A stretch of DNA of 64,000 nt, from NCBI GenBank assembly GCA_964502885.1, contig CAZCXU010000001.1:93352-157351 (forward strand), in the 5' to 3' direction. The notes below the pieces were generated by a model that ran no database searches, was not told the origin of the DNA, and was given only the letters and a program-made list of their open reading frames with translations. A program made the position numbers and the translations under genes. Origin of the DNA: an uncultured Gammaproteobacteria bacterium (GTDB taxonomy: Bacteria; Patescibacteriota; Microgenomatia; CAZETR01; Amesbacteraceae). How positions within the stretch are numbered: the stretch's first letter is position 1; each line of letters starts with the position of its first letter. Shown one piece after another: positions 1,430 through 40,639 of this stretch.

Positions 1430-2485
1430 TTGGCGGGAATGAAACTAGTCAAAGAGACCCAACAGATTATTCCAGAGGCTGTCTCGGTTCTAAATAAAGG
1501 AGGATTGGTAATCTTCCCATGCGAGACGGTGTATGGTGTGGCGGCTGATGCCAGCAACGAGGCGGCAGTGAGAAGACTTAATGCGTACAAACAACGCCCA
1601 ACAGGAAAACCATATGCGATTATGGTTTCGGATATGGCCATGGCGCAACAATATGTAGAAATTAACCAGACTGCCAGAAACTTATATAAAAAGTTTTTAC
1701 CTGGACCGTTAACAATAGTGTCAAAAGGAAAACACAAAGTTGCCTCCGGAGTTGAGTCAGAAAACGGATCCTTGGGAGTGAGAATTCCAGATTACGATTT
1801 TTTACTAAGATTGATTACTTCATTTGGCAAGCCGATAGTCGCAACATCTGCAAACGCCAGTTACAAGAAACGACCTTATAAGCTGGATGATGTTTTTGAA
1901 AATATTTCCCAGGACCAAAAACAACTGATTGATTTGGCTATCGATGCAGGGGAGTTGCCACACAATGAACCGTCTACCGTAGTGGATACGACTTTGGACG
2001 ATGCAACAATACTTCGACAAGGAGAGATCAGATTTTCAGAGGAAAACAGAGTAATAAGCCGAAGCGAAGAGAACACCCAGAATATTGGCAAGGAATTGTG
2101 GCAGAAGTACGAACACTTTTTGCATCAGCGAGCAATCGTATTTGCCCTTTCAGGAGAAATGGGGGCGGGAAAAACGCAACTCACAAAAGGGATAGCCAAA
2201 GCGATGGGAATTACTGACACAGTTGTCTCCCCCACTTTTAGTCTGGAAATCGAATATGACAACTTGGTTCACATAGATGCCTGGAGAATTGAGAACGAGA
2301 AAGAAGTTGAACAAATGGGTTATGTAAAGCGAATTTCGGAAAAGAGCGTCATAGTGATCGAGTGGGCCGAAAAAATCGGAAACTTAATTCGCAGATATGA
2401 TGATGATGCGATTGTGGTTTGGATAAAGATCAAATATGGATTCAGCGAGAATGAACGAATTATCTCCTGGGGGGTTGAGGCTTAA
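1430..2485 (+). CDS. Fused L-threonylcarbamoyladenylate synthase TsaC/Sua5 (YrdC domain) and t6A protein TsaE
   Basis: N-terminal YrdC/Sua5 motifs (VIFPCETVYGVAADASNEAAVRRLNAYKQRP...IMV). C-terminal TsaE/YjeE motifs (GEMGAGKTQLTKGIAKAMGI...VVSPTFSLEIEYD...DAWR). Confidence 0.75.
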   Translation: MAGMKLVKETQQIIPEAVSVLNKGGLVIFPCETVYGVAADASNEAAVRRLNAYKQRPTGKPYAIMVSDMAMAQQYVEINQTARNLYKKFLPGPLTIVSKGKHKVASGVESENGSLGVRIPDYDFLLRLITSFGKPIVATSANASYKKRPYKLDDVFENISQDQKQLIDLAIDAGELPHNEPSTVVDTTLDDATILRQGEIRFSEENRVISRSEENTQNIGKELWQKYEHFLHQRAIVFALSGEMGAGKTQLTKGIAKAMGITDTVVSPTFSLEIEYDNLVHIDAWRIENEKEVEQMGYVKRISEKSVIVIEWAEKIGNLIRRYDDDAIVVWIKIKYGFSENERIISWGVEA

Positions 2486-2486
2486 G

Positions 2487-3539
2487 ATGAAAACGGCTGA
2501 ACTAATATTGGCTATTGATACATCGTGTGATGAAACAGCTGTATCTGTAACATGTGGCACAAATGTACTTGCAAACATAGTCTGGTCTCAGGCGCAGCAA
2601 CACGCGGAATTTGGCGGAGTGATGCCATCGCTGGCGAAACGGATGCACGCAGAGCGCATCACTGAAGTAACACAAAAAGCTCTGGGCCGGGCAGGTATAG
2701 ACAAAAGAGAAATTGACTGTGTGGCGGTCACTACTGGGCCGGGCCTGGCCATTGCGCTGGAGGTAGGAATTCTGGCCGCAAAAACCATTTCTAATGAACT
2801 CGGAATACCCTTACTGGCGATAAATCACATAGAAGGACATCTATTGAGCAACCTGGCTGTGCCACGCAATAAACCCGCAACCTCTTTTGAATTTCCAGCA
2901 TTAGGACTGGTCATTTCCGGGGGACACACAGAATTAGTACATATTAGGAAATTTGGGCAATATCAAATTCTTGCCCAAACGCAAGATGACGCACTAGGAG
3001 AGGCGCTCGACAAAGCAGCCCGAATGTTGGGATTGGGATATCCGGGTGGAGCTGTTTTGGAAAAGATGGCAAAGTTTGGAGATCCAAAGGCTTATTCCCT
3101 GCCATTACCTATGGCGAGGCAGAGAAATTTTGAGGCGTTTAGTTATTCCGGACTAAAAACAGCTTTTTTCAGGTTAACCAATGAAATCGGAACTAAGAGC
3201 TCAACGAGACAACAAACATACAACCTGGCGGCTACTTTTCAAAATCGCGCCTTTCAGCACCTTGAAAAAGTTTGTAGCGCTCAAATAGAAAGACTTGGCA
3301 ATGAAAAGCCAAAATACTTGTGGGTCGGTGGAGGGGTGGCAGCAAATGCTTTACTGCGCAAAAGACTTAGAAGAATGGCAGAAGACTTTGGACTAAAGAC
3401 CAGATTCCCCTATTCAAAAAAACTGATCGGCGATAATGCGGCAATGATAGGTGTTGCCGCTTATTTACGCCGCACTGCTGGCATTGATGACAATATTATC
3501 CAACCAGACAGACGACCGAGATGGACGATTGGAAGCTAA
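2487..3539 (+). CDS. tsaD: tRNA N6-adenosine threonylcarbamoyltransferase TsaD (Kae1/Gcp family)
   Basis: MKTAELILAIDTSCDETAVSV... followed by a Gcp/Kae1-type HxxH/ASKPS-like core. The ATG at 2487 follows the tsaCE stop directly, so the track start at 2436 is probably an upstream extension. Confidence 0.85.
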   Translation: MKTAELILAIDTSCDETAVSVTCGTNVLANIVWSQAQQHAEFGGVMPSLAKRMHAERITEVTQKALGRAGIDKREIDCVAVTTGPGLAIALEVGILAAKTISNELGIPLLAINHIEGHLLSNLAVPRNKPATSFEFPALGLVISGGHTELVHIRKFGQYQILAQTQDDALGEALDKAARMLGLGYPGGAVLEKMAKFGDPKAYSLPLPMARQRNFEAFSYSGLKTAFFRLTNEIGTKSSTRQQTYNLAATFQNRAFQHLEKVCSAQIERLGNEKPKYLWVGGGVAANALLRKRLRRMAEDFGLKTRFPYSKKLIGDNAAMIGVAAYLRRTAGIDDNIIQPDRRPRWTIGS

Positions 3540-3556
3540 GGCTCTATAATGATGGC

Positions 3557-3707
3557 AGTATTGACAATTGAGCGGACCAGTCACCCGCGAGTCACGCCGA
3601 AGAACAGGGTCAACAATGTCTCTAAGTAGAACGGCACAACGAGAAGTAAATAAGGTGGTACCACGAGATCCCGCTCGTCCTTATAATGTTGAGGAAGCGG
3701 GTTTTTT
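3557..3707 (+). promoter_or_regulatory. Putative T-box leader (valine specifier) with intrinsic terminator, upstream of valS
   Basis: AATAAGGTGGTACCACGAG (3649-3667) matches the T-box consensus AAnnnGGGTGGNACCGCG. A terminator hairpin CCCGCT...AGCGGG plus T6 lies at 3670-3707. A GUC (Val) codon sits in a candidate specifier region at about 3608-3610. The candidate promoter has -10 TATAAT at 3545-3550. Confidence 0.4.
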
Positions 3708-3714
3708 GTGAAAT

Positions 3715-5961
3715 ATGGACAAAGCATACGACCACAAAAAATATGAGGACCAAATCTATGAGATGTGGGAGACTAGTGGGGCATTTAAACCTGCAGCAAC
3801 CGGAACTCCATATACAGTTCTAATGCCCCCACCAAACGCAAATGCATCCCTGCACGCCGGCCATGCGATGTATACCATTGATGACATTGTTACCAGGTGG
3901 AAAAGAATGCAGGGCTACTCGACGGTGTGGATTCCAGGAATGGATCATGCAGGGTTTGAGACGCAGTTTGTTTATGAAAAGAACCTGGCTAAAGAAGGTA
4001 AATCGAGATTGAATTTTGACCGGAAAACCCTATATAACAACATCTTCCAGTTTGTAAAAAACAATTCGGGTTTGATATACAAACAGTTTCGGAAACTAGG
4101 GTTATCCGCTGATTGGGACCGCAGCGTATTTACTCTAGACAGACGTGTAGTCGAACGGGTTTATGAAACTTTTAGACGGATGGAAAGAGAGGGTAAGGTT
4201 TACAGGGACAACTACATGGTGAACTATTGCACACACTGCGGAACTTCCCTGTCTGAACTCGAAGTTGATCACGAGGAAAGAGTGGATCCGCTGTACTACT
4301 TAAGGTACGGCCCTTTTGTGTTGGCCACAGTAAGGCCGGAAACAAAGTTTGGAGATACAGCTGTGGCGGTTCATCCGGGCGACAACAGGTATACAAGTCT
4401 GGTAGGTAAGGAGATTGAAGTGGATGGGTTGATTGGAAAATTCAAGGTGAAAGTGATTGCAGATGAAGCTGTTGATCGGGAGTTTGGAACAGGAGCAGTA
4501 AAAGTAACCCCAGCACATGACCCGACTGATTTTGAGATGGGGAAACGTCACAATCTGGAAATAAAACAGGTAATTGGTCTTGATGGGCGATTAAACGAAA
4601 AGTCTGGTAAATATGCGGGTTTGAAAGTAGCTGAGGCGAGAAAGGCTGTTGTTGCGGATTTGCAGAGTGCTGGCTTACTGGAAAAAGTTGATGAGAATTA
4701 CAAACACGCGGTATCCATTTGCTACAAGTGTAAAAGAACGCTCGAACCCACAATCATCCCTAACTGGTTTGTACGCATAAACGATTTGAAAAAACCAGTT
4801 ATTGAAGCAGTAAATCGTGATGAGGTGAGGTTTTTTCCTAAGAAATTTAAGAGATTAATGTTGGACTGGTTAAAGAGAATGCACGACTGGCCCATCAGCC
4901 GGCAAATTGTCTGGGGAATTCGGATTCCGGTGTGGTATGAGTTGGATTTTCAAAAAGAAAATATTTGGGCGGGATGGCTGGATAAAGAGGGAAAGTTTCA
5001 ACAATCATCTGTTAGTCATGCTCTGAAACAGGGCACTCCCCTATCGGAAATTGTGGACGGGCTGCAATGGATCAGAACCAGCACAGGAGAGTCGGCCCCC
5101 AGATATGTGGTTTCAGAGGAGAAACCCGCGGACGGAAAAATATATTTGCCGGAGACAGACACCTTTGACACCTGGTTTTCCTCCAGCCAATGGCCACTAG
5201 TAACCCTGGATGAACATGAGTTTGCCACAAGATTCCCTTCCGATTTCATGGGCACATTGGAGGATATACTCCCCTTTTGGATTTCACGAATGATTTTGTT
5301 TGGAGAATATGTGAAACAAGGTGTTCCATTTAAACAGGTGTACTTGTGGTCAAAAGTGACTGATAGCAAGGGGCAAAAAATGAGCAAAAGCAAAGGAAAT
5401 GTGGTCAATCCGGTTGATTTTATTGATAAATACGGAGCTGATGCGGTAAGAATGGCTCTTGTTTTTGGTGTCGCTCCAGGGAGCTCAATCCCCTTTTCCG
5501 AAGGCAAAATTAGGGGCATGCGTAATTTTGCTAATAAACTTTGGAATGTGGCACGGTTTGTCTTTACGACTATTCAGGATACTGCTCAAGGAGAAGCAAT
5601 TTCCAACGAAGTACAAGAATCTTTGAATAGCCGTCTGGAGACAATTAGACAAAAGTCGGAGCTGGTTCAAAAAAAGGTCTCATTAAGTTTAGAGCACCTA
5701 CGTTTCAATGATGCTGCAGAATATATCTATGAATACGCCTGGCACGAATTCGCTGACAAAGATTTGGAATTTATAAAGACAAGAATTAATTCTGGAGCAC
5801 GAGTAAATGGCAGGTCAAAAAAGGATCTTACGGCTGCATTAATCAATATTCTGACAAGTGTTCACCCGTTAATGCCGTTTGTTTCAGAGGCAATCTGGCA
5901 GGAGGGTATCAGACAAAATCTATCAGGATTTACAGGAATGCTAATAAGAAAAGTCTGGTAG
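3715..5961 (+). CDS. valS: Valine--tRNA ligase (compact, no C-terminal coiled coil)
   Basis: HAGHAMY (HIGH-like) motif, CP1 editing-domain motif VRPETKFGDTAVAVHP, and KMSKSKGN (KMSKS) motif. Confidence 0.9.
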   Translation: MDKAYDHKKYEDQIYEMWETSGAFKPAATGTPYTVLMPPPNANASLHAGHAMYTIDDIVTRWKRMQGYSTVWIPGMDHAGFETQFVYEKNLAKEGKSRLNFDRKTLYNNIFQFVKNNSGLIYKQFRKLGLSADWDRSVFTLDRRVVERVYETFRRMEREGKVYRDNYMVNYCTHCGTSLSELEVDHEERVDPLYYLRYGPFVLATVRPETKFGDTAVAVHPGDNRYTSLVGKEIEVDGLIGKFKVKVIADEAVDREFGTGAVKVTPAHDPTDFEMGKRHNLEIKQVIGLDGRLNEKSGKYAGLKVAEARKAVVADLQSAGLLEKVDENYKHAVSICYKCKRTLEPTIIPNWFVRINDLKKPVIEAVNRDEVRFFPKKFKRLMLDWLKRMHDWPISRQIVWGIRIPVWYELDFQKENIWAGWLDKEGKFQQSSVSHALKQGTPLSEIVDGLQWIRTSTGESAPRYVVSEEKPADGKIYLPETDTFDTWFSSSQWPLVTLDEHEFATRFPSDFMGTLEDILPFWISRMILFGEYVKQGVPFKQVYLWSKVTDSKGQKMSKSKGNVVNPVDFIDKYGADAVRMALVFGVAPGSSIPFSEGKIRGMRNFANKLWNVARFVFTTIQDTAQGEAISNEVQESLNSRLETIRQKSELVQKKVSLSLEHLRFNDAAEYIYEYAWHEFADKDLEFIKTRINSGARVNGRSKKDLTAALINILTSVHPLMPFVSEAIWQEGIRQNLSGFTGMLIRKVW

Positions 5962-6670: not shown

Positions 6671-8806
6671 TCAGTTATTCAAGATGAAATCAATGCTAAG
6701 CCTTAGTGGCTTTGAGCTCTGCGTATTATAACTGAGCTCGCCTGCTCTAGCAACTACAGGCGGATAATAGGTTGTCGAGTGCCAACTTGGAGGAAAATTT
6801 ATCGTGGAAGTCAAACGAGAAGTTGATCCTGGCTGATTTAGGAAATGAAGGAGGTAAGTAAATCTGGCAGAAACAGAACTTTTTTCCTCAAATTGAAGTT
6901 GGAACTCTGTGATTGCGTCAAGTTTTGGAATCTTAAACCCAAGCAGACTGATTCCTGACTGAAAATCTGGCTGGGAAACACTAATTGGCCAGGCAACTGA
7001 CCCTGTGAATGATTTTTTAATACTAATATTTTTTGATACTAACACCCAGAAGTACTCATCTCCCAATGCCTTGGACAGGCGGAAGTTGAGGGAGTGGGTA
7101 ATCCCCCCACCGGGCAACAGTACAGTTTCCAAATGATAGTTTGGCGCCATTACTTCAGAAGATGTGGATGTAACTGATGGATAAATTACCGAACTAGCAC
7201 AAGGAAGATGAGAGGTGCAAATTGGCATCGCGACTCCCCCACTCCAATTTATGTGTTGTAAAAGTGTGTCGCTGACGGATTGGTAGGAAATCAGGATGTG
7301 CCGGTTTTCTACCTGTCTGAATAAATAAACCAGGTCTGACATAGTGTCGGGTGTTCCAGTATTTAAATTTGTAAGTTTCTGCCAATCCCCCTCAGACAAA
7401 GAGAATACAAGGTCGGGGGACCAATTTTGAGATTTCTCAACAAACCAGGCGGCATACCTGGCTGAGAGATGAAAATCCGGTGAGTAATTATGATTGGAAA
7501 AATTCCAGATGTTTTTTTCGTAGATATCCTGAAATCCAGCTGGGCTTTGAATCAGGCCATCGATAGACTCAGCTATTTGTTGGGGAGTTTTTTCACTTAT
7601 GACTGAAATGCGGCCAGACATGATTTGCAGTAATTTCAACGACTTTACGATTCCCCCATCTGATGACATGCTGGGGTTTTCTTTTATAAGAGCTAAGACA
7701 TTAATCGGCCGAGATCCGTCAATAATTTGTTGATACGAATTTCCAAGATACACCAACTTACCTATATACGAGAGTATCTCTTTTGTAGTTATTTTGACTG
7801 ACTGCAGACTGGAACTGCTTGAATTGAGCGATGAAACTGTCGAAAGTTTTTCCTGAAAATCTGCAAATGCTGTACGAGCATGTAGTAACTGGCTCATAAG
7901 TGTCTGAGAATTGAATGATTGATTAGTAGCAGCTTGATTGACTTCTCTGATTGACAAATAGGATTGGCTTAATAGGTCAGACAGGTTTTGCGCTAGCGAC
8001 AATGGGAGTGGGTAGTTAAACATCATAGAGAAAAACGGGGAAAGGCCTGACGCTTTTATTAAAGGCCATGATGTTTTTTGGGCCACCGCAGACAACTTGA
8101 GAGCAGATCCAAAATCTGTTTTTGCATAATCGCTCAATGCGAAACCCAAAACAACCTGAAGTGACACTGTGTAGACAAGCAATAGCAATACGAAAACAAC
8201 AAACGACCGAATTATTATTTTTGACCAAGAAATAAATATGTTATGTCTGCGAGGTTTTTCATAAAGTCTTTTTACGAGTACCGGTGATGCCTTAGATGGG
8301 GCAGGAAGTTGTGTCAGGTTGTGCAAATTCTTTTTCAACAATAGCAGCAAAGAGTCCGGAAGTGGATTGTCTGCCGGCACCGGCACCACTTCAAACCGCA
8401 ACGGATACCTGCGGGCAAACTGAGCTACAAACTGAATCGCTGTCTGGACCATATGAGTGGTGGTGCTTTCAACTACCAAAATCAATTTGGCGTTTTGAGA
8501 AACAGCTCCAACGAGTAGGTGATGCAAATATGAAGTGCAGTATATTGACTGATTCAATGAGGGAGGACCAAACCCAACAAAATGATAGATGCACGAGAGG
8601 TGCAGGGGTGTCTGATTTGGAGATGTGCTGCCGATTTCACTGTGAACCTGAATTGTCTGAAGACAGGAAAATTGTACTGCAAGGTTTTTTGAAAGTTGAG
8701 TGACCTCACCAGATATGAGGACTGAATAACGGTTTGTAACTTCATTTGCAACTAATAAATTCTTATGCATTTGTTTATTTATAGCGGGCCATGAAGCGAG
8801 GTGCAA
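6671..8806 (-). CDS. Large hypothetical membrane-anchored protein
   Basis: 711-aa ORF with one predicted TM helix (IIIRSFVVFVLLLLVYTVSLQVVLGF). No motif I recognise. Confidence 0.45.
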   Translation of the reverse strand: MHLASWPAINKQMHKNLLVANEVTNRYSVLISGEVTQLSKNLAVQFSCLQTIQVHSEIGSTSPNQTPLHLSCIYHFVGFGPPSLNQSIYCTSYLHHLLVGAVSQNAKLILVVESTTTHMVQTAIQFVAQFARRYPLRFEVVPVPADNPLPDSLLLLLKKNLHNLTQLPAPSKASPVLVKRLYEKPRRHNIFISWSKIIIRSFVVFVLLLLVYTVSLQVVLGFALSDYAKTDFGSALKLSAVAQKTSWPLIKASGLSPFFSMMFNYPLPLSLAQNLSDLLSQSYLSIREVNQAATNQSFNSQTLMSQLLHARTAFADFQEKLSTVSSLNSSSSSLQSVKITTKEILSYIGKLVYLGNSYQQIIDGSRPINVLALIKENPSMSSDGGIVKSLKLLQIMSGRISVISEKTPQQIAESIDGLIQSPAGFQDIYEKNIWNFSNHNYSPDFHLSARYAAWFVEKSQNWSPDLVFSLSEGDWQKLTNLNTGTPDTMSDLVYLFRQVENRHILISYQSVSDTLLQHINWSGGVAMPICTSHLPCASSVIYPSVTSTSSEVMAPNYHLETVLLPGGGITHSLNFRLSKALGDEYFWVLVSKNISIKKSFTGSVAWPISVSQPDFQSGISLLGFKIPKLDAITEFQLQFEEKSSVSARFTYLLHFLNQPGSTSRLTSTINFPPSWHSTTYYPPVVARAGELSYNTQSSKPLRLSIDFILNN

Positions 8807-9508: not shown

Positions 9509-10735
9509 TTATCGGTTAGCTGTTTTAATAGTTTCCTGCTGTTTTGAACCCACGACAGATAAGCCTGTCAGAATCATAATTAAAAGAAAATTTTGATGTG
9601 AGGTTAACCAATAGTGATCAAAAAATCCACTAAAAAGGATGAATGTCCAAGAAAAAAGGTGGTTGACAGATAAATTGTGCATCAGCTTCGCGATGCCCCA
9701 GCATAAAGTGACTATCACCACCAGAAATGGAATAACCCCCAATTCAGTGATTAGCAGTAGATAAGTGTTGTGTATAGGCTGCGAGGACACAGCGTAAATA
9801 TTTGGGAAGGAATTGATTGACACATAGACGTAAGCCCCCAGTCCAGTCCCCCAAACAGGATATTTATTTATCAGGTTTTGCCAAATAGGAAGCTGATTTA
9901 GGCGACCAGATAATGATAGCGGGCGAAGCTGAATCCAAACTTGAACAATAAGACCCAAAACAATCATGCAGACAAAAAGCAATTTGGGACGATGTGTGCA
10001 TGTTAACAAACAAAACGATAATAATGCCGCCACCACCGTACCAAATGACCCAGTCAAAAAAATCGCCAACAGACCCAGCAGAATAACAAAATGAGTAAAC
10101 CCTTTTTTTTGAACCGAATGTGTGTGTTTAGGAAAAAGTAACATCAAGCAGACAGCCAAAAAGCCGGCCAGGGCGTTTGGATGGGGAAATGTGGCGTAAG
10201 ATCGAAGATGTGTACCAAAGTACGGGAGTGTATGTTTGGCGACTGCTGAGGAGGATAATGACAAAGGTCGTTCTCCCAGATAATAGAGAAGTCCACCCAC
10301 TTCACCAGACAAGTAGAACTGAGAGACTGACAATAAAGATAACCAAAGTACTGTAAAGGGCAAGATGCGGAAAAATACTTTTGAAAAATAATCCGCAGAA
10401 AGCACATAGGAATATATAAAGCATAAATACAGGAAAAATATTGTTACCTTGTACAGAGATAACAGAGGCACTCTTGATGTGTTTAATACAAATAGCAGGA
10501 TAGCGATGAACAGTAAAACCACGACTCGAAATCTTTGACGGAAAAAAGTGGGATTACGAGGTAGTCGAATTAAGAGAATTAGCATAACCAAAAGATCGAC
10601 AAAGTAGATAGCAGGCGAGAGATAATCTACCGGAAGGCCGAATGGATGCGAAAAATTTGGCCATAAGTGATAAGCCAACTGAGAAGGAAAAATCAGAACA
10701 AAAAGACCAAACAGAAATCGCTCTAGTTTATACAT
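9509..10735 (-). CDS. Polytopic membrane protein, O-antigen ligase/polymerase (Wzy_C)-like
   Basis: 408 aa with about 10-12 TM helices and a periplasmic-loop pattern reminiscent of the WaaL/Wzy family. Confidence 0.3.
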   Translation of the reverse strand: MYKLERFLFGLFVLIFPSQLAYHLWPNFSHPFGLPVDYLSPAIYFVDLLVMLILLIRLPRNPTFFRQRFRVVVLLFIAILLFVLNTSRVPLLSLYKVTIFFLYLCFIYSYVLSADYFSKVFFRILPFTVLWLSLLSVSQFYLSGEVGGLLYYLGERPLSLSSSAVAKHTLPYFGTHLRSYATFPHPNALAGFLAVCLMLLFPKHTHSVQKKGFTHFVILLGLLAIFLTGSFGTVVAALLSFCLLTCTHRPKLLFVCMIVLGLIVQVWIQLRPLSLSGRLNQLPIWQNLINKYPVWGTGLGAYVYVSINSFPNIYAVSSQPIHNTYLLLITELGVIPFLVVIVTLCWGIAKLMHNLSVNHLFSWTFILFSGFFDHYWLTSHQNFLLIMILTGLSVVGSKQQETIKTANR

Positions 10736-17033: not shown

Positions 17034-17321
17034 TTAATGATGATTAATTTCTTCAAGTAATATGAGCGGAAGTTTGAGCAAATGATCCTTTTCTTCCTGA
17101 TAAGGGTCGGAGAAATGTTCATCTGTAGAGTGTGTTTCCACTTCGCGGCGAAGCTCTTCTGTGCTTTTGTGGAGGACCTGCCCAGCCCATTGCCAAAGCG
17201 GGTCAGCGTCTGTTTTGAACTGATCAAAATTATGACAGGAATTACAGATTTCAATTACGGCGTTTTCCAGACTGCTGACGACAGATGGATTTATGTAGTC
17301 AGGGTAGGCAAAAGTGTTCAT
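17034..17321 (-). CDS. Hypothetical small protein in the T4SS-like operon
   Basis: 95-aa ORF, acidic, translationally coupled to the VirB4 stop. Confidence 0.3.
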   Translation of the reverse strand: MNTFAYPDYINPSVVSSLENAVIEICNSCHNFDQFKTDADPLWQWAGQVLHKSTEELRREVETHSTDEHFSDPYQEEKDHLLKLPLILLEEINHH

Positions 17322-19183
17322 TTTGATTCAGGAACCAGTATTGGTTTGGTTTGAGTTTCAGCTTGTTTTTGAGCTAATATTTCGGAGGGTTTGGTGGTAA
17401 TTAGCTTGTGTTCGTCCGGGGATGCTACAAAGCGAACAGCTACGTGATTGTTTCCTGCAAAAAACAGACCTTCTCCAACGTTTGCTGACAGGAGAAGGTG
17501 TTTTTCTCCCTCGGAGAGATAGAAGACCTGGGAAATTTTGTCGACTCCCGCTGGTGATTGTTTCATGAGTATTTGTAGGGAAGAACTGGTGACGATGGCT
17601 TTGCCGTAATCAGTGTTCAAAAAGTCTTCTACGTCCTGAGTAATAGTGGTAAGACCGAGAAAATACTTACGAGCGCGTTTGGCGACGCTGTAGAGGAAAC
17701 TGGCTGAGTCGGGATAACGCATGAGATACCAGGCCTCGTCTACCACAAGAATGCGTTTCTTGAGGTCGCGGCGCATTTTTGTCCAGATATAGTCAAGAAT
17801 GAGAAAGATAGCAATGGGCTTGAGAGAATCTTCGAGATCGCGGACAGAAAAAACTGTAAATTGATTTTTTAGTTGAATATTTGATGGCTGATCGACTATT
17901 CCGGTAAAACTTCCCTTTACAAATCGTTCTAGGCGATCAGCAAGAGATAGGGCTATGGGTTCTTCCATGCCAATGAAAGCTTTGTAAAGATCTTCCATTA
18001 GCGGGGGAGTATTTTTTTGTGTAGCGGGATCAGGGGTGATACCTTTCATACGATAAGCGAGATTGAGGGCGCGATCGAGAAGTGCGTCTTCTGTGGGGCT
18101 AAGGTTTCCCATGATGACTTTGAACATGGAATGCAGCGATTGAATTTTGAGATTAAGCTCGTTTTCATCTGAATTTTGGGTAAGAAGGGAAAGATCAAAG
18201 GGGTTGATGCGATTTTGAGAATTGTAGGAGAAATTGATGTAGTCGCCTCCTACGGCATCACAGAGGGCTTTGTATTCGTTTTCAGGATCTATAACGATTA
18301 TTTCTGTACCAAACATCATGGAACGAACCAGTTCAAGTTTAATGGTGTAAGACTTTCCCGCACCGGATTTGGCGAATACTACTGAGTTGGCGTTTTCCAG
18401 AGAGAAGCGATCAAAAATGACCAAACTGCCGTTGTGCTGATTTATTCCATAGAGGATGCCGTCATTGCTGGTGAGCTCTGATGAGGTGAAAGGGAAGGTG
18501 GTGGCCAGAGAGGTGGTGTCCATGTTTCTGGTGACCATAAGATGGTCGATACAGGTGGGGAGGGTGGTTTTGAAACCTTCAGCCTGCTGGAGGAGTGTGG
18601 GTGTAGAGGCCACTAGAAGAGATGAAAGGGAGCTAGTGACCTGTTTACTGGCAGTTTCAAGTTCGGAGGGGGAATCGGCGGGAATGGTGACATAGAGAGA
18701 GAATTGAAAGAAGCGTTCGATGCCTTTGACGAGTTGATCCTGAAGAGCCAGAGCGTCTTCGAGTTTGGCTTGGGTTACAGGATCGACAACGCGGCCGCGT
18801 TGGGCGTCAGTGTTTAGCTCGGCTTCCATTTCGGCAATCTTTCGACGCAGATCGTCGAGCGTGGACTTGCTTTCTACAGGATAGATGAACATGGAAATAT
18901 TTAGTGAATGGTCAAAATTAATGATGGGACTAAGCCAGTTGCTGGAGACGAAGCGGCGGTTTATTGAGGTGAAGTAGGTGCGGAAATATGTGTCGTTGAT
19001 TTTTAATGAATTGAAATCGATGGTAATGTTTTGTGGGGCGATGATATCCTTGACTGTTTTGGCCTGGGATAATTCTTTTTGGGGGAGAGCCATATTTGTG
19101 TCTGGGACGTTACCGGAGACCTGAGTTGCAGGAGTGGCAGTTTTTTTGACGGGGGTAAGGTTAGGGAGTTTTGGTAGCTTCAT
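17318..19183 (-). CDS. Type IV secretion / conjugation ATPase VirB4 family (C-terminal ATPase portion)
   Basis: Walker A VVFAKSGAGKSYTIK, Walker B ILVVDEAWYLM, and the general VirB4/TraE/CagE architecture. Confidence 0.85.
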   Translation of the reverse strand: MKLPKLPNLTPVKKTATPATQVSGNVPDTNMALPQKELSQAKTVKDIIAPQNITIDFNSLKINDTYFRTYFTSINRRFVSSNWLSPIINFDHSLNISMFIYPVESKSTLDDLRRKIAEMEAELNTDAQRGRVVDPVTQAKLEDALALQDQLVKGIERFFQFSLYVTIPADSPSELETASKQVTSSLSSLLVASTPTLLQQAEGFKTTLPTCIDHLMVTRNMDTTSLATTFPFTSSELTSNDGILYGINQHNGSLVIFDRFSLENANSVVFAKSGAGKSYTIKLELVRSMMFGTEIIVIDPENEYKALCDAVGGDYINFSYNSQNRINPFDLSLLTQNSDENELNLKIQSLHSMFKVIMGNLSPTEDALLDRALNLAYRMKGITPDPATQKNTPPLMEDLYKAFIGMEEPIALSLADRLERFVKGSFTGIVDQPSNIQLKNQFTVFSVRDLEDSLKPIAIFLILDYIWTKMRRDLKKRILVVDEAWYLMRYPDSASFLYSVAKRARKYFLGLTTITQDVEDFLNTDYGKAIVTSSSLQILMKQSPAGVDKISQVFYLSEGEKHLLLSANVGEGLFFAGNNHVAVRFVASPDEHKLITTKPSEILAQKQAETQTKPILVPESK

Positions 19184-21181: not shown

Positions 21182-23962
21182 ATGGACGATATGAGCAGCG
21201 AATCTAGACGGTCTGGTAGACTTGATTTTGACTCTGGCTTGGACGCTTCCCAAGTTAACAGAAGTGGGGATGTTGTAGGCCGAAATGTTCAAGAGTGGGG
21301 AGGGCGGGGGAGGCAGGTTGATGCGGAAGATGATAATTTAGAAATTTTCAAAAAAAAGTTGGAAGAAGCGGAGAACTTTTCTAGTATTCAGACTTATGTA
21401 GTGGGATATTTGGAGAGAGCTGAACAGAGAAACATCGTCGAGAGAAACGCAGCTTTGGAATTAATTCTGGAGAGGTCGAGATCATTTAAGGAGGTGGACT
21501 TAGGAATTCAAAGAGCTTTAAAAATCTCTCTAAAGGAGGAAAGGTTTGAAGAGTTGAAACAACTGAAAGACGAACAAGCAGCGTTGATGGTGGTGGCTGA
21601 TTCTTTAGATATGTTTGAAGGGGTAAGGCAGGTGGCTAGAGCAGGCCAGGGGGATTATTTACGAGGGAAGAGAGACGCGGATGAAATCTTTTCTGGAGCT
21701 GTGGGGCCTAATGTGTCAAATATAAGGGGTTCAGAGAAATTGCAAGGAATGGTGGACAGATACCAAGCCACAGCTGTAGGGGTGTGGGAATGGGCAAAAA
21801 GTGTGGCAAAGGGCGCGGATTATGAAGGTCGAACAAAAGAAGGTTTAGAGGCGTTGGGATGGGGAACTATCCCGTTTAGAGAAACATTGAACTTGGCAAG
21901 GGTTATAACGGAAGAAACTGTTTCTCCACCGGAAACTCCCCCCAGAGTTGGTCCATCTGGTGGTGACCCATCTCGAGGACCAGAAAGTGAGATTTTTGCT
22001 GAAAGGGCAAGGAGAGCAGAAGAGTTGTTGATAGCAACGGGATTAAGTAACAATGGTTTGCCAACATCAATTGCTGAGTTGGATGCTATTGAACAAGGGG
22101 CTCCATACATCGAAAAAACAGGCAGACCTTTGTATGGTGGAATTTTGCACAACCTGCTTAATAAATACATGACAGTTTCGGTGACTGAGGGAGAGAAAAG
22201 ATTGGGGTTGGCTAGTAAGGTGGAGGCTAATTTTACTTCTGATGAGTTGCTACTAATTAACGACAGAGATGTGAGGTTTTGGGTTCAAGTGTTTGCCTTT
22301 GGGTTTGGGTTGGGGTCTCGAACGAAAATTAATTCACATTTAAATGAGAATCAGGGTGGTTTTGTGAAGAATGCTTCAGGAGAAGCTCCCATGCAGGGGA
22401 GAAGTGTGGGTGAAATGTTAAATGCAATTGCAGGTAGGGATGTTGAGAATGATGAAAGAATGTGGGGAGAATATCGTATGGAGGCGGGGCGACGGGTGGC
22501 TCCCTCTAAGGATAATACATGGAATAAAGCTTTTGGAAATGTGCAGTATGGTGAATGGGAGGTTTTGCAGGTGGCGATGATGAGAGCAATAGTGTTGCGA
22601 GGGAATCCAGAGATTTCTTCGGATGAACTCGACACAATAATTCGTACTAATAAAAATTTACGTATGGGTTTAGCTGGGGCGAGGATGTATGCAATGGCGA
22701 CACATATGGGAGATCAGTTTGCAGTCGAATCTAAACACTTTTTAGCAACGGCGGCATATTTTGAGTTCCATTTTCAAGCAGCAGCCGTGGATAGATTGGC
22801 AAAATTATCATTACCACACAGGTTTAGGAGTTATATGAATTTAAACTCAGACTTATTTAAGGACTCGCAGGGAAACTGGAGTGATGAAACACTTATGCAT
22901 CGCAGATTATTTGCCCCTGATGTAATGCGATCAGTTATATGTTCTCCTGCTGTGTTTTCGCGAGGAGTACAAGGACCTAATCCGGAAGAATCAAGATATG
23001 AACCACAGGAGACAATCTTAGACTTGGCCATAAGGGGCATAGAAGTTCGACAAGATGCGTTGCAAACAGGGGTAACTCCTACCCGTATTTATAGTTTTGG
23101 AGTAAATGCGGCCGAAAAAATATTTAATTTGGCTTTTGGGGGTGGGACTCCCCCCGAAGGGCCGGATGTAAAGTTTGACAGAGATAAGGGATGGGCGTGG
23201 AATATGGGGCAGGAAATTCTGGCTACAGCGCGGGATTTGGGTTGGATTATGGAATATGAAAATACCATTAAACAAGAAGGGGTGAGTATGACTCCAGCTG
23301 AAGCGTCTCGACGAAGAAGAGCGATAGAACATAATATTCAGAGGTTGGGTATCACTAGGTTTATGGCTGGGTTGGGAATGAGAATAGAAAGAGGCGAAGT
23401 GCACAATTTAACCGATTTGGCGGCTTGGGCGGTGGGGATGGTGCTTGATAGAAGCGCCAAGTTTGTACATCAGATGAATTTGCCGGACGGAAGTGTCAAG
23501 CAGTTGGAGTTTCGCTGGGTATCCAAGGAGGACTCAGAATGGGTTGTAGAACATGGGTTGAATAAAAGAGATGAGAAGTGGGTGGATACGAGAAGCCCTT
23601 GGTCTTATGTTTATGAGTTAGTAACCAGGAGAGCACCTAATCGTAGAGGTGAGTGGGAAACTAAGCAGGGTGGAGAAGATGATTTATTGATTCAGGTATT
23701 GGTAGATAAGGCAGGAGGGGATGCTTCGGAAGCGGCTATGCACAGAAGAGACCAACTGAATCATCGGGTTAGAAAGTGGCGTTGGGGAGTAGGTGACTAC
23801 TTCTTGGGGTGTGGAGGGACTGCTACTAAAGAGGATGTGAGGCTTCGGGAGAGCTTTGAAGAAAAAATTGCGGGTGGTAGGGATATGCCCAAAATAGACA
23901 GGTTAACTCCATATCAAAAGGTGTACAACACATTGGACTTTTCTGATTACGGTAAAAGCTAA
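21182..23962 (+). CDS. Large soluble orphan protein (926 aa) adjacent to the T4SS-like genes
   Basis: Long ORF with no TM helix and no Walker motifs, Gly/Arg/Trp-rich. No family I recognise. Confidence 0.5.
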   Translation: MDDMSSESRRSGRLDFDSGLDASQVNRSGDVVGRNVQEWGGRGRQVDAEDDNLEIFKKKLEEAENFSSIQTYVVGYLERAEQRNIVERNAALELILERSRSFKEVDLGIQRALKISLKEERFEELKQLKDEQAALMVVADSLDMFEGVRQVARAGQGDYLRGKRDADEIFSGAVGPNVSNIRGSEKLQGMVDRYQATAVGVWEWAKSVAKGADYEGRTKEGLEALGWGTIPFRETLNLARVITEETVSPPETPPRVGPSGGDPSRGPESEIFAERARRAEELLIATGLSNNGLPTSIAELDAIEQGAPYIEKTGRPLYGGILHNLLNKYMTVSVTEGEKRLGLASKVEANFTSDELLLINDRDVRFWVQVFAFGFGLGSRTKINSHLNENQGGFVKNASGEAPMQGRSVGEMLNAIAGRDVENDERMWGEYRMEAGRRVAPSKDNTWNKAFGNVQYGEWEVLQVAMMRAIVLRGNPEISSDELDTIIRTNKNLRMGLAGARMYAMATHMGDQFAVESKHFLATAAYFEFHFQAAAVDRLAKLSLPHRFRSYMNLNSDLFKDSQGNWSDETLMHRRLFAPDVMRSVICSPAVFSRGVQGPNPEESRYEPQETILDLAIRGIEVRQDALQTGVTPTRIYSFGVNAAEKIFNLAFGGGTPPEGPDVKFDRDKGWAWNMGQEILATARDLGWIMEYENTIKQEGVSMTPAEASRRRRAIEHNIQRLGITRFMAGLGMRIERGEVHNLTDLAAWAVGMVLDRSAKFVHQMNLPDGSVKQLEFRWVSKEDSEWVVEHGLNKRDEKWVDTRSPWSYVYELVTRRAPNRRGEWETKQGGEDDLLIQVLVDKAGGDASEAAMHRRDQLNHRVRKWRWGVGDYFLGCGGTATKEDVRLRESFEEKIAGGRDMPKIDRLTPYQKVYNTLDFSDYGKS

Positions 23963-24020: not shown

Positions 24021-25751
24021 TTAGGATGTACCACCTGCGGGAGGGACAGGTCTTCGAATGTTGGCTTCTTTGGCTTTGGAGACTTGCTGACCAGCCGAAG
24101 TCAATTGTCCCATGGTGTCTTTGGCCATCTTTTCAACAAAGTCAGAAGGATCTACAGACTTACAGAACATGTTCTTAACCATGGTTGCTATGTTGGGGGC
24201 GAATGACATGGCCCCTACGAAAACTGCATATTGGACGAAAATATTACTGGGCATGTCAAATAAGGGAAAGTTGGCTTGGTTGTTAAAAAAGAAGCCTATG
24301 TCTCCGGCGAATCCTGGGACGGGAGTGCGAGTGTCAAACCCTGCATTAATTAGAATTGCTAAGAGAGCATATGTCACAAAAATTGAGGCATTGCCGATGA
24401 GACAAAGAAGCCATTTTTTAAATCCACCAAAATCAGATTTCTTCGATGGGATAATATCGAAAATAATTATTAGCGGGCCGGCGACAACCAGAAGATTAAA
24501 AGTAATAAAGGCGACCACAAATTGACCAATAATTCTGGCCCAGACGTAAATTGACCAAAGGAAGAAACCAAGAATGAAACCAGCTATGAGAACAACCACT
24601 CCTCCAGAAGCAAGATTAAGCAGTGCAGCTAGAACTATAGTGAGAATTATCAGTACTATGGAAACAACTATCCAAAAGGCAAGGAAATGCCAGACAAAAT
24701 CAAAACCGCCTCCAGCTAAGGTGGACATAGCAAGCGGCAAGTCAGTTATAATTGTCATGCCGATAGCTGTTTGGGCAAAATAAAGCATGCCAATAATTGC
24801 GGAAATGGCTAAGTACATCAGGTCAATTACGAAGCCGGCAATGGCGTATGAAAAGAGAACCAACACAATAGATATGGCAATGCGGGGAATAACCATTTGA
24901 ATTGTTACCGAGACTTGCGGAGATATTTTTGAACGGAACATAACCATAAAACCAGCAATGATGATAATCAGGGTGGTAATTAATAGTGCGATGTTTCGAG
25001 TGGCGATCCAAAATGCTCGGGTAGGAGAGTCTGTCGTTCCGGTACCACCCAAGCCAAGTCTTTCGTAACCACTTCCTTGCGCAAACGTGTCCGAGACAAT
25101 GTTGAGTTTTGAAGCAAGTTGTTTAGTTTCAGACCAGGCTGAGGGGAGGGTGTCAATTTGTGATGAGATATAGTAGGTAAGCTTGAGTACTCCAATATAA
25201 CTTTGACCTATGAATCCATATTTATTAACAAATGCCAGATCAGAAGAAGAAAAATTTTGAGTGACGAGCATGCTGCGGGCAAGATCTATCGCTGTGAGTA
25301 AATCAGTGATGTTTTGCAAAAGGGCTGCTGGATCAGGAGAAGATATAACTGAGGGAAATAACATCGAAGAGAGAGAGTTGAGGATCCAGTTTACTTGAGC
25401 GTAGGTGTAGCGCTCACCAAAAATTTCGTCGGGATTTGTATTGTCGAAAACTTTTTGCTGGAACTCCTGAATTGAAGGATTGTACCAAGGGTGTGGTGTT
25501 ACTTCGGCGAAGAACAAACGGGAGATTTCGTAGATGAGATAGGAGCAACGTGCTGCATCACCGAAAGGGTTGGGGGAAATGGCTTGACAGGCAGCATCTG
25601 CCTGAGCGCACAGCGGCTCGGCGGGATCACAGGTCGGTTGGGCAAGAACCGGTGATGGTGTGATAAATACTGTTAACCCTATGAATAGAAACGAAAGGGT
25701 AAAAAGGTATTTTTTAATCAGCATTGAAAGATGTTTTGTCATGGAAGACAT
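24021..25751 (-). CDS. Polytopic membrane protein with signal peptide and Cys-containing periplasmic N-domain; VirB6/TrbL-like candidate
   Basis: Signal peptide, then a roughly 230-aa extracytoplasmic domain, then about 8 TM helices with large loops, consistent with VirB6-like topology. Confidence 0.35.
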   Translation of the reverse strand: MSSMTKHLSMLIKKYLFTLSFLFIGLTVFITPSPVLAQPTCDPAEPLCAQADAACQAISPNPFGDAARCSYLIYEISRLFFAEVTPHPWYNPSIQEFQQKVFDNTNPDEIFGERYTYAQVNWILNSLSSMLFPSVISSPDPAALLQNITDLLTAIDLARSMLVTQNFSSSDLAFVNKYGFIGQSYIGVLKLTYYISSQIDTLPSAWSETKQLASKLNIVSDTFAQGSGYERLGLGGTGTTDSPTRAFWIATRNIALLITTLIIIIAGFMVMFRSKISPQVSVTIQMVIPRIAISIVLVLFSYAIAGFVIDLMYLAISAIIGMLYFAQTAIGMTIITDLPLAMSTLAGGGFDFVWHFLAFWIVVSIVLIILTIVLAALLNLASGGVVVLIAGFILGFFLWSIYVWARIIGQFVVAFITFNLLVVAGPLIIIFDIIPSKKSDFGGFKKWLLCLIGNASIFVTYALLAILINAGFDTRTPVPGFAGDIGFFFNNQANFPLFDMPSNIFVQYAVFVGAMSFAPNIATMVKNMFCKSVDPSDFVEKMAKDTMGQLTSAGQQVSKAKEANIRRPVPPAGGTS

Positions 25752-40166: not shown

Positions 40167-40240
40167 CAAATATATTATGTGTGTCGCGTCTGACGCGATC
40201 ACCTTGCAAACACGTCTTCTTGCGAAGCCGCGTTTGACGC

Positions 40241-40639
40241 GGTGGAGATGGAGGGAGTTGAACCCTCGTCTGTGTAAGTTTTGAAAACCGGTTTATTACA
40301 AGTTTGTTTGGTATAAAGCTGCCAACAGCTGCTGGTTAGTTGGTCTTTTTTCGATTTAGGATAACCAAAGCCGATCGAAAGCATTCCGATAGGGTTTATC
40401 ACTAAAGAAAAGTTATCGGAAAAACAATTCTTGAGTGTCGGCTTGTCCCTACTTAAGCGTAAAGCATGCGAGGGGCAAACTGAGTGCTGAAGATGGAGTT
40501 GAAAGGATTGACCTTTGCAACAAAACCTTCAACGCGTGCTTTTAAGTTAGCACTTTGTTTTGAATCTGTTTTACGAGTGTGATTCGAACTCGACTTGCCG
40601 ATATTTCAAGGTGCTTATACATCGAAACCCGTCATCCCC
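40241..40639 (-). ncRNA. ssrA: tmRNA (ssrA)
   Basis: On the minus strand the 5' end is GGGGAUGACGGGUUUCGAU... and the 3' end is ...GACGAGGGUUCAACUCCCUCCAUCUCCACC, giving a tRNA-like T-arm and a 7-bp acceptor stem (GGGGAUG/CAUCUCC). Length about 400 nt. smpB lies about 1 kb upstream. Candidate tag frame: ...GCA AAG GUC AAU CCU UUC AAC ... UAC GCU UAA. Confidence 0.55.

Follow-up and report, generated by a model that had tools for sequence, protein, structure and literature searches.

The valS gene (valyl-tRNA synthetase) in the window, as we call the whole 64,000-nucleotide stretch of DNA that was analysed, which comes from an ultra-small bacterium of the CPR/Microgenomates type, is preceded by a leader that is most likely a genuine but strongly stripped-down T-box riboswitch, one that would read uncharged tRNA-Val. 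Judged on sequence and predicted folding, it is probably a tRNA-sensing element that acts by transcription attenuation and uses a decoding half built on a short Stem I. An earlier note on this DNA had proposed a T-box-type leader controlling valS. That proposal is upheld by the overlap between antiterminator and terminator, and by the presence of homologous leaders before valS in four other CPR-type lineages (L081, L089, L161 and L170).

The spacer between the tsaD stop codon at 3539 and the valS ATG at 3715 is 175 nt. The predicted leader promoter overlaps the end of tsaD and has 10 of 12 consensus matches (Table 1). Transcription is predicted to start close to 3557, giving 158 nt of RNA up to the valS ATG, in agreement with the earlier description of an unusually short leader in a CPR-like genome. 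Each of the homologous leaders is preceded by a promoter of its own in the same relative place: TTGACA-17-TATAAT in L081, TTGAAT-17-TAAAAT in L170, TTGACA-18-GATAAT in L089 and TGaTATAAT in L161. There is no room for a further promoter between the end of the U-tract and the valS ATG. We prefer the ATG at 3715 to the start of database model P0001, which lies 16 codons later, because the N-terminal ValRS sequence MDKAYDHKKYE is conserved in relatives. No other aaRS genes or further T-box cores were found in the 64-kb window, and neither the window nor 27 related loci contained a tRNA-Val gene.

Table 1. Positions of the predicted elements of the valS leader and of valS within the window.
Feature	Position	Strand	Sequence or description	Basis
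Predicted leader promoter	3522-3550	+	Sigma-70-type: TGGACG (3522-3527), 17-nt spacer, TATAAT (3545-3550)	
Reduced Stem I	3562-3594	+	K-turn plus short hairpin	MFE, covariation
K-turn C-stem	3562-3565 / 3591-3594	+	UGAC / GUCA	
K-turn bulge	3566-3569	+	AAUU	
K-turn tandem G.A pairs	3570-3571 / 3589-3590	+	GA / GA	
Stem I helix	3572-3575 / 3585-3588	+	GCGG / CCGC, plus A3576.C3584	
Apical specifier loop	3577-3583	+	CCAGUCA; valine codon GUC 3580-3582, then A3583	
Stem II	3596-3635	+		MFE, module identity, covariation
Stem II closing helix	3596-3599 / 3632-3635	+	GCCG / CGGC	
Stem II S-turn-type internal loop	3600-3604 / 3626-3631	+	AAGAA / GUAGAA	
Stem II distal extension, window-specific	3606-3609 / 3620-3623	+	AGGG / CUCU; loop 3610-3619	
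Purine-rich linker	3636-3651	+	ACAACG-AGAAG-U-AAAU	Module comparison
Antiterminator (discriminator core)	3651-3683	+		Rfam local match, fold energies
Antiterminator helix A1	3651-3655 / 3679-3683	+	UAAGG / CCUUA	
T-box bulge, 7 nt, between A1 and A2	3656-3662	+	UGGUACC (UGGNACC type)	
Antiterminator helix A2	3663-3667 / 3674-3678	+	ACGAG / CUCGU; loop 3668-3673	
Intrinsic terminator	3670-3707	+	12 bp plus U6; 2-nt bulge, 6-nt loop	
Terminator outer helix	3670-3675 / 3696-3701	+	CCCGCU / AGCGGG	
Terminator inner helix	3678-3683 / 3690-3695	+	UCCUUA / UGAGGA	
valS, the putatively regulated gene	3715-5961	+	748 aa	Homologs named valine--tRNA ligase; Pfam tRNA-synt_1 and Anticodon_1

The T-box sequence AATAAGGTGGTACCACGAG lies at 3649-3667 before valS, and a terminator hairpin CCCGCT...AGCGGG (3670-3701) with TTTTTT at 3702-3707 follows it, both just as the earlier note had read them. 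Within this region AAGGUGGUACCACG agrees with the T-box consensus AGGGUGGNACCGCG (PMC11297988) at 12 of 14 positions, and the exact core GGTGGTACCRCG has a single occurrence in 64 kb when both strands are counted. The antiterminator is the MFE structure of RNA truncated before the 3' half of the terminator, at -9.1 kcal/mol. On explicit evaluation it has -7.6 kcal/mol, against -17.3 kcal/mol for the terminator. The two structures have 3674-3683 in common and are thus mutually exclusive. The U6 run ends 7 nt upstream of the valS ATG, and L170, L161 and L081 have an equivalent hairpin with a U5-U7 run; the discriminator is near-identical in L170. The hairpin at 3670-3701 is absent from the list returned by a simple terminator scan, probably as a result of the 2-nt bulge in its stem, yet it is present in every RNAfold fold. 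The MFE of the leader region as a whole is unexceptional (z=-1.2).

A search of the whole window with the Rfam T-box model RF00230 at its gathering level of 93 bits reported nothing. A permissive search recognised the discriminator alone, with neither Stem I nor Stem II seen by the model in the window; its local match at 3648-3682 covers model positions 183-216 with 26.9 bits (E=3.3e-4, 401-nt search). The earlier note had said that its reading would fall if the RF00230 score were sub-threshold and no antiterminator pairing existed. The score is indeed far below gathering, but a local discriminator match is found and the antiterminator pairing is present, so the reading stands.

The leader of L170 aligns to RF00230 from end to end (42.6 bits, E=1.5e-8). 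The alignment covers the K-turn, to which GGCGUUUGA...AAGCC is assigned, the basal Stem I helix, Stem II (with GAA...AGUA placed there), the IIA/B pseudoknot (CGUUUACugcuUGGCGUAA), Stem III (GCUU...AAGC) and the discriminator, while 73 Stem I model positions are replaced by an apical loop. The L081 leader scores 45.2 bits over its full length, and those of L161 and L089 gave no T-box match even at E<=10. With nhmmer the L170 leader has one match to the window, at 3564-3706 (E=9.7e-12). The upstream genes differ, being tsaD in the window and HhH-GPD in L170, and the two ValRS proteins are 62% identical. The decoding modules alone (57-58 nt) gave no nhmmer match in the window, and only the full L170 leader was significant. 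MAFFT alignment of whole leaders misaligned the middle modules, and a leave-one-out covariance model was dropped; homology was tested instead by nhmmer and by explicit module strings checked against the sequences. The modules of the window, L170 and L161 are collinear, and CCAGUCA, AAGAA and UGGUACC are identical in all three.

The unconstrained MFE fold recovers the C-stem and the Stem I hairpin. From the sequence, a K-turn (GA motif) is predicted at the foot of Stem I, with a bulge of 4 nt, not 3. The C-stems vary yet remain paired, with UGAC/GUCA in the window, GGC/GCC in L170 and AAGC/GCUU in L089. In a comparison of five leaders, with helices picked by eye, the Stem I hairpin is 96% paired with double changes in five of five pairs (0/500 shuffles), and slid controls give 28-52%. 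The loop CCAGUCA is identical in L170 and L161, where it is carried on different stems. L089 has CUAGUCC with GUC in the same register, and the homologous loop of L081 shows ACC, not GUC. A hairpin with an AGUC loop occurs in four of four other T-box-bearing CPR-type leaders; the background is 0.10-0.17 per kb. The putative specifier matches the amino acid of the gene that it precedes, GUC at 3580-3582 standing in Stem I before valS, and is one of the C-ending codons that are preferred according to TBDB. The earlier note had envisaged a Stem I with GUC in a specifier loop. There is no long Stem I with an internal loop of this kind, and the codon is instead apical; the window Stem I has 4-5 bp and is capped by a 7-nt loop, and an elbow-binding distal Stem I is absent.

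A sole linker nucleotide, C3595, separates Stem I from Stem II, and L170 has none. Stem II carries an S-turn signature, GAA (3602-3604) with AGUA (3625-3628), and may adopt a three-dimensional S-turn. L170 shares AAGAA...GUAGAA with the window without change, and L161 shares AAGAA. In a spliced, hand-made alignment the closing helix of Stem II is 96% paired with 12 double-change cells (0/500 shuffles). Beyond Stem II, the purine-rich linker occupies the place of the IIA/B pseudoknot and Stem III of L170. Within it AGAAG (3642-3646) agrees with RRRxG, the purine string described as flanking Stem III (PMC7583486), and AAA (3648-3650) is also present. The vestige of Stem III in the window amounts to at most two possible pairs, G3634.U3647 and C3635-G3646. 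No IIA helix, and hence no IIA/B pseudoknot, is possible in the window, where Stem II is separated from A1 by only 16 nt. L161 and L089, like L170, have an IIA/B-type pseudoknot.

The decoding half resembles that of the actinobacterial Class III ileS T-boxes (those of Nocardia farcinica and Mycobacterium tuberculosis, whose Stem I is called 'ultrashort'; class definition after PMC10482949 and PMC7583486), yet it is predicted to be valine-specific, occurs in CPR bacteria and is joined to an intrinsic terminator. The common features are a short Stem I that lacks the elbow-binding double T-loop motif, a specifier codon in the apical loop followed by A, a K-turn at the base of Stem I, a Stem II with an S-turn/purine motif right after Stem I (linker of 0-1 nt), and a discriminator core with a UGGNACC bulge between A1 and A2. 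The IIA/B-type pseudoknot extends the likeness in L170, L161 and L089 but not in the window, whose Stem III is moreover only vestigial. The codon is valine (GUC) rather than isoleucine, the hosts are CPR/Microgenomates rather than Actinobacteria, and the apical loop has 7 nt, or 9 nt with A3576.C3584 unpaired, against 5-6 nt in Class III (PMC10482949). The expression platform is not an SD sequestrator but an intrinsic terminator followed by a U-tract, and the genome makes scarcely any use of SD sequences.

The leader shares its terminator/antiterminator logic, K-turn and Stem II S-turn with Class I T-boxes (Bacillus subtilis tyrS type, RF00230). Class I valS leaders of Chloroflexi and Firmicutes (L106, 94 bits; L111, 85.9 bits) have the same gene and the same GUC codon, and the T-box sequence is AAUCAAGGUGGUACCACGAG in Chloroflexi and AAUAAGGUGGUACCACGAG in the window. 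The distinction from Class I lies in Stem I, where in the L170 alignment a 7-nt loop stands for the 73 model positions, and in the window's 26.9 of 93 bits. The Class II glyQS leaders are likewise short (about 150-180 nt), transcriptional and free of an IIA/B pseudoknot. However, glyQS is glycine-specific and keeps a long Stem I with the elbow platform, together with Stem III, while lacking Stem II. The window leader has the opposite arrangement, with Stem II present and the platform absent. It joins a Class III-like decoding module, familiar from translational ileS leaders of Actinobacteria, to an intrinsic terminator, and so brings together elements that belong to separate T-box classes in textbook accounts.

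The mechanism that we propose is built on the established sequence elements, mutually exclusive folds and their energies, leader homology and covariation in Stems I and II. Transcription would start near 3557. Stem I, comprising the K-turn and a hairpin of 4-5 bp, would then offer GUC in its apical loop to the anticodon of tRNA-Val, expected to be GAC, and the leader would thereby bind this tRNA. The GAA/AGUA loop of Stem II may clamp the codon-anticodon duplex and so replace the missing elbow-binding platform, a role that we propose by analogy with the solved Class III T-boxes. The 3' ACCA of an uncharged tRNA, which includes the expected discriminator base A73, would pair with UGGU of the UGGUACC bulge, stabilising the weak antiterminator against the stronger terminator and allowing readthrough into valS. 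A charged tRNA would be unable to pair, and transcription would stop 7 nt before the ATG. The step under regulation is probably termination, not translation. In the window this scheme would have to work without an IIA/B pseudoknot and with a vestigial Stem III; according to reviews, transcriptional T-boxes generally need a long Stem I with the elbow-binding motif.

The reduced state of the window copy might instead indicate a decaying T-box, in which loss of the pseudoknot and Stem III has abolished tRNA sensing and left a leaky terminator or an inert leader. About 30 nt that hold IIA/B and the 5' strand of Stem III in L170 are deleted in the window. Both elements are reported to be important or indispensable: in published work tRNA binding fell about 1,200-fold when the pseudoknot was deleted, and Stem III is called indispensable. 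The leader has also been lost frequently in the clade, since 9 of 12 close lineages are without it. Yet at 62% ValRS identity to L170 the promoter, the K-turn, an identical specifier loop and compensatory stem changes are all kept, as are identical S-turn motifs, the near-identical discriminator and the terminator pairing. A cell would not easily tolerate a strong constitutive terminator that stands 7 nt ahead of valS, presumably a single-copy gene (64 kb examined), and has no promoter after it; we regard decay as unlikely. We consider it still less probable that the hairpin at 3670-3701 mainly sequesters the translation start, in translational or dual control like that of the actinobacterial Class III/IV T-boxes. 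The decoding module is of the type of Class III, a mostly translational class, and an SD-like GAGGA (3692-3696) lies within the 3' strand of the hairpin. L170 has AGGAGG 11 nt and L081 GAGGG 12 nt before the AUG, and the competing hairpin of L089 lacks a U-run and ends 2 nt before the AUG. However, a GC-rich stem of 12 bp that runs straight into U6 is the hallmark of intrinsic termination, and the U5-U7 runs of L170, L161 and L081 also count against translational control. The GAGGA sequence is 18 nt from the valS AUG, and it is forced to be SD-like in any case because it pairs with UCCUU of helix A1. Use of SD sequences is almost nil, an SD-like motif being suitably spaced in only 4 of the window's 36 genes, and we therefore favour termination over SD masking.

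The tRNA could in principle be decoded at another position. The earlier note had pointed to a GUC near 3608, and there is a GTC at 3609-3611, but it is not conserved and falls in an insertion in Stem II (3605-3625) that is specific to the window, where L170 has UUUUU. A helix UUGAC/GUCAA around this codon appears in the MFE of a longer fragment, and L089 has an analogous long-range option, UUGAGU/ACUCAA. In that helix the codon is itself base-paired, neither a distal Stem I nor an AG-bulge platform accompanies it, and the MFE fold from the predicted start gives the K-turn, hairpin and Stem II instead. The conserved element is the apical CCAGUCA. A long Stem I helix around 3609-3611, with its codon partly paired, was accordingly rejected, and a specifier at this position is very improbable. 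It is also barely credible that the resemblance arose by chance, from an ordinary tsaD terminator after a T-box-like 12-mer. The CM score under the gathering threshold and the unexceptional fold energy would fit such an origin, but L170 carries a homolog of the entire leader downstream of another gene, and the same architecture with covarying helices stands before valS in five lineages. Furthermore, 130 nt and a promoter separate the terminator from the tsaD stop, and valS is 7 nt away. The nhmmer match and CM alignment of L170, together with the Stem I covariation, effectively refute a chance origin.

The tRNA-sensing attenuator that we prefer has a patchy distribution. ValRS-anchored scans of genome and metagenome contigs reached distant relatives only (<=52% identity); most of the CPR loci had no UGGNACC upstream, L081 and L089 being the only positives. 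L089 has close relatives at 74-82% ValRS identity (P0122-P0130). Closer ValRS homologs yielded two new positives (L161/L162 and L170) and nine negatives, so that the leader is carried by 3 of 12 close lineages. In the leaderless nine a -10 box lies directly before the ATG. It is possible, although we would not count on it, that the window leader of about 150 nt is a fully functional transcriptional T-box despite lacking the elbow platform, the IIA/B pseudoknot and Stem III, all three of which are regarded as essential in the systems studied, making it the most reduced natural T-box, and that the architecture is old in CPR and has repeatedly been lost in favour of a leaderless valS. If the window leader is fully functional, co-transcriptional sensing of tRNA would need no more than a K-turn, a 7-nt specifier loop, an S-turn-bearing Stem II and a string of purines. 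An active window copy would also be a very small natural tRNA sensor, useful for engineering and for dissecting which T-box parts are required.

T-boxes are usually described from Firmicutes, Actinobacteria, Chloroflexi and Deinococcus-Thermus, and gene regulation in CPR/Patescibacteria has been described as virtually unknown. A full-text literature search found no paper that mentions a T-box in CPR/Patescibacteria. The window leader and its four relatives suggest that valS expression is coupled to the charging of tRNA-Val in some CPR bacteria of the Microgenomates type. The distribution of T-boxes is probably under-counted in divergent phyla, because Rfam thresholds miss leaders such as these, which score 26.9 to 45 bits or give no match.

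The leader occupies a 175-nt spacer between tsaD and valS and is 158 nt long, counted from the predicted RNA start. The T-box sequence AATAAGGTGGTACCACGAG lies at 3649-3667, exactly where the earlier note had placed it, and its core GGTGGTACCRCG occurs in exact form just once in the 64-kb window. The terminator CCCGCT...AGCGGG described in that note is also present (3670-3701, then T6 at 3702-3707), and the mutual exclusivity for which it suggested a test is borne out by the folds, since the terminator takes up 3674-3683, which make up the 3' sides of helices A2 and A1. The A1/A2 fold is the minimum free energy (MFE) structure of the RNA lacking the 3' half of the terminator, at −9.1 kcal/mol. 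On explicit evaluation the A1/A2 antiterminator has −7.6 kcal/mol and the terminator −17.3 kcal/mol. A strong terminator set against a weak antiterminator is the standard arrangement of T-boxes. The U-tract ends 7 nt upstream of the ATG, so that expression of valS from the leader promoter requires readthrough.

Scanning the whole window with Rfam at gathering thresholds found a tmRNA and tRNAs, and no T-box. With permissive filters on 3400-3800, the T-box model RF00230 matched 3648-3682 only (model positions 183-216), scoring 26.9 bits (E = 3.3e-4), where gathering requires 93. The model therefore recognises the discriminator alone, and formal membership of the family, for which the earlier note had suggested an Rfam scan, failed on score. 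The leader of L170 comes from a groundwater metagenome and is aligned by Rfam in full (42.6 bits, E = 1.5e-8), providing an independent key to the anatomy of the window leader. In that alignment GGCGUUUGA...AAGCC forms the K-turn, GCUAG/CUAGC the basal Stem I helix, and an apical loop replaces 73 model positions comprising the internal specifier loop and distal Stem I. Next come Stem II (GAA...AGUA), Stem IIA/B (CGUUUACugcuUGGCGUAA), Stem III (GCUU...AAGC) and, last, the discriminator. Using the L170 leader as query, nhmmer gave a single match in the window, 3564-3706 (E = 9.7e-12), running from the K-turn through the terminator, although the upstream neighbor is a HhH-GPD gene on the opposite strand in L170 and tsaD in the window.

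The modules of the window leader are listed in the table; their strings were checked against the sequences, and unconstrained RNAfold gave the same fold. Distal Stem I is missing, and with it the elbow-binding platform. Two further elements of L170 are missing too, the IIA/B pseudoknot and the 5' Stem III strand. The gap from Stem II to A1 is 16 nt, where at most two Stem III pairs are possible, yet the purines found on either side of Stem III in other T-boxes (RRRxG ... AA; PMC7583486) are retained as AGAAG-U-AAA. The earlier note had proposed as specifier a GUC that is indeed present at 3609-3611. That role is very unlikely: the triplet falls within a distal part of Stem II that is window-specific and replaced by UUUUU in L170, the predicted fold pairs the G of the triplet, and it is not the conserved codon. 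The leader contains three copies of GUCA (3580, 3591 and 3609) and one UGAC (3562). In the MFE structure of a longer fragment UUGAC (3561-3565) pairs with GUCAA (3609-3613) instead of its K-turn partner, and it could in principle pair with the specifier itself (3580-3583); such alternative pairing may be regulatory or fortuitous. A comparable alternative pairing exists in L089.

Features of the window, with coordinates
Feature	Position	Strand	Sequence or remark
tsaD	2436-3539		upstream of leader; Pfam TsaD, E = 4e-78
Promoter-like site	3522-3550		TGGACG-17-TATAAT; predicted RNA start near 3557
K-turn C-stem	3562-65 / 3591-94		UGAC / GUCA
K-turn bulge	3566-69		AAUU
Tandem G.A pairs	3570-71 / 3589-90		GA / GA
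Stem I helix	3572-75 / 3585-88		GCGG / CCGC, plus A3576.C3584
Apical loop	3577-83		CCAGUCA; GUC 3580-82, A3583
Stem I-Stem II linker	3595		C
Stem II closing helix	3596-99 / 3632-35		GCCG / CGGC
Stem II internal loop	3600-04 / 3626-31		AAGAA / GUAGAA
Stem II distal extension	3605-3625		window-specific
Linker to discriminator	3636-51		ACAACG-AGAAG-U-AAAU
Discriminator	3651-3683
Helix A1	3651-3655 / 3679-3683		UAAGG / CCUUA
T-box bulge (7 nt)	3656-3662		UGGUACC; flanked by A1 and A2
Helix A2	3663-3667 / 3674-3678		ACGAG / CUCGU
Terminator + U-tract	3670-3707
Terminator outer stem	3670-3675 / 3696-3701		CCCGCU / AGCGGG
Terminator inner stem	3678-3683 / 3690-3695		UCCUUA / UGAGGA
U-tract	3702-3707		U6
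valS	3715-5961	+	downstream of leader
TraG/VirB4-like P-loop ATPase	17318-19183	-
Pfam-unmatched ORFs	6671-8806(-), 21182-23962(+), 24021-25751(-), 36914-38773(+), 50225-51724(+)
Example ORFs for absent SD and present -10-like hexamer	9509-10735(-), 21182-23962(+), 25798-29460(-), 48448-49806(-), 50225-51724(+)

ValRS-anchored scans of two sequence collections returned distant relatives only. Canonical T-boxes precede valS in Firmicutes and Chloroflexi loci (for example L106, 94 bits, and L111, 85.9 bits, with GUC specifiers), and UGGNACC is absent upstream of valS in most loci of the candidate phyla radiation (CPR) from these scans. The element was found before valS in five CPR-type lineages: the window, L170 (62% ValRS identity to the window), L161/L162 (66%), L081 (48%) and L089 (44%, with relatives of its own named Woesebacteria or Microgenomates). 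Each of the five leaders has a consensus-like promoter of its own. Neither L161 nor L089 gave any Rfam T-box match, and no K-turn was seen in L161.

Comparison of the five leaders supports the decoding hairpin. The loop CCAGUCA is shared by L170 and L161 on different stems (GCUAG/CUAGC and GUUGU/ACAAC), and the specifier hairpin of L089 is GUCUAU-CUAGUCC-AUAGAC. In the alignment 96% of Stem I hairpin cells are paired and both sides have changed in five of five pairs; none of 500 shuffles reached this covariation score, and sliding the partner reduced pairing to 28-52%. Hairpins with an NNAGUCN loop occur in control sequence at 0.10-0.17 per kb. The Stem II closing helices (GCCG/CGGC, GCGGG/CCCGC, GACCG/CGGUC, CGUAC/GUACG and CCGCU/AGCGG) are also 96% paired, with 12 double-change cells and 0/500 shuffles, numbers that are biased toward structure because the alignment was spliced and the helices picked by eye. 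L081 has at 829-864 a hairpin homologous to that of L089, with identical flanks and two compensatory pairs. It carries CCA-ACC-A where other leaders have CCA-GUC-A; ACC is a threonine codon, and the downstream gene is valS. A second ACC lies in the adjacent internal loop, and an alternative fold exposes GUC within GGAGUCU. In L089 the hairpin GCCGAA-ACAAUUC-UUUGGC (2978-3003) competes with helix A1, lacks a U-run and stops 2 nt short of the AUG; it may act translationally or as a weak terminator.

The element was not found in nine other close lineages (L163-L169 and L171-L173, L163 and L164 being copies of one gene), nor in the nearest relatives of L081 and L089 (63-68% ValRS identity). Its distribution is therefore patchy in each sampled sub-clade. 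In L163-L168 (valS starts at 2001, 2001, 2001, 693, 1501 and 40) a TAAAAT or TATAAT box stands 8-13 nt upstream of the start codon of valS, which makes a leaderless valS probable in these relatives. GTGAAAT or GTGAAT occupies that place in the window (3702-3717) and L161. The riboswitch seems to be gained or lost together with a change of valS between the leadered and the leaderless state.

Four classes of T-box are distinguished (PMC10482949). Class I combines a long Stem I, bearing an elbow platform and an internal specifier, with Stem II, which Class II (glyQS type) lacks. In Class III, with Nocardia farcinica ileS as the example, Stem I is short, has a K-turn and presents the specifier in an apical loop of 5-6 nt, and a Stem II with S-turn and pseudoknot is needed. 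Regulation is generally of transcription in Classes I and II, and mostly of translation in Classes III and IV (PMC10482949); a long Stem I with platform is generally required in transcriptional T-boxes, and ultrashort Stem I elements are translational (PMC7583486). The CPR leaders thus possess a Class III-like decoding module. They differ from Class III in being valine-specific, in occurring outside Actinobacteria, in their 7-nt apical loop and in having an intrinsic terminator attached to the module, with a run of U5-U7 in the window, L170, L161 and L081.

We consider it likely that the window leader is a working T-box attenuator of short-Stem-I architecture. The anticodon of tRNA-Val would pair with GUC 3580-3582, and by analogy with solved Class III structures the purines of the Stem II S-turn may clamp the codon-anticodon duplex. 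The ACCA end of uncharged tRNA would pair with UGGU (3656-3659), stabilizing A1/A2; the terminator would then not form and valS would be transcribed. The most serious rival is that this copy is a decaying relic, given that two elements important in studied systems are gone and the leader is readily lost across the clade. We think this improbable, however, as promoter, terminator and all other modules are intact although the ValRS is only 62% identical, and a constitutive terminator immediately upstream of valS would be hard to tolerate. The Stem I-Stem II linker of 1 nt, compared with none in L170, is suggestive in the same direction but falls short of proof.

For the window, translational control by masking of a Shine-Dalgarno (SD) sequence is also unlikely: the terminator's SD-like GAGGA stands 18 nt away from the AUG, and an SD-like motif lies at a usable distance in just 4 of the 36 long ORFs. 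Of the 36, 12 have a -10-like hexamer (TANNWT) ending 5-11 nt upstream of the start codon, compared with about 0.4 per position elsewhere, which suggests that leaderless mRNAs predominate in this genome. With its leader valS is a rarity, and no SD lies between U-tract and ATG.

We found no full-text report of T-boxes in the candidate phyla radiation, Patescibacteria, Saccharibacteria or Microgenomates, within incomplete coverage and with unreported database hits possible; one paper on these groups treats riboswitches solely as potential tools for engineering. According to the TBDB preprint the family is ancestral to Firmicutes, Actinobacteria, Chloroflexi and Deinococcus-Thermus, and in the published TBDB paper the short-Stem-I model was run on Actinobacteria and truncated class I hits. 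Mechanism and parts are known; what is new is their combination, the valine specificity of a short-Stem-I architecture and a phylum-level group for the element.

The closest ValRS proteins (57-69% identity) are named Candidatus Amesbacteria, Roizmanbacteria, Collierbacteria or Patescibacteria group, which places the window in a CPR bacterium of Microgenomates type. P0001, an identical database protein of 732 aa, begins 16 codons downstream (3763 rather than 3715); the N-terminus MDKAYDHKKYE is conserved among relatives, which supports the ATG at 3715 as the start. Elsewhere in the window several large ORFs (499-926 aa) had no Pfam match at E ≤ 1e-5. Compared with the model, the tmRNA gene (40240-40639, minus strand; Rfam 94 bits) contains a long insertion, and its predicted tag peptide, ARVEGFVAKVNPFNSIFSTQFAPRMLYA, is unusually long.
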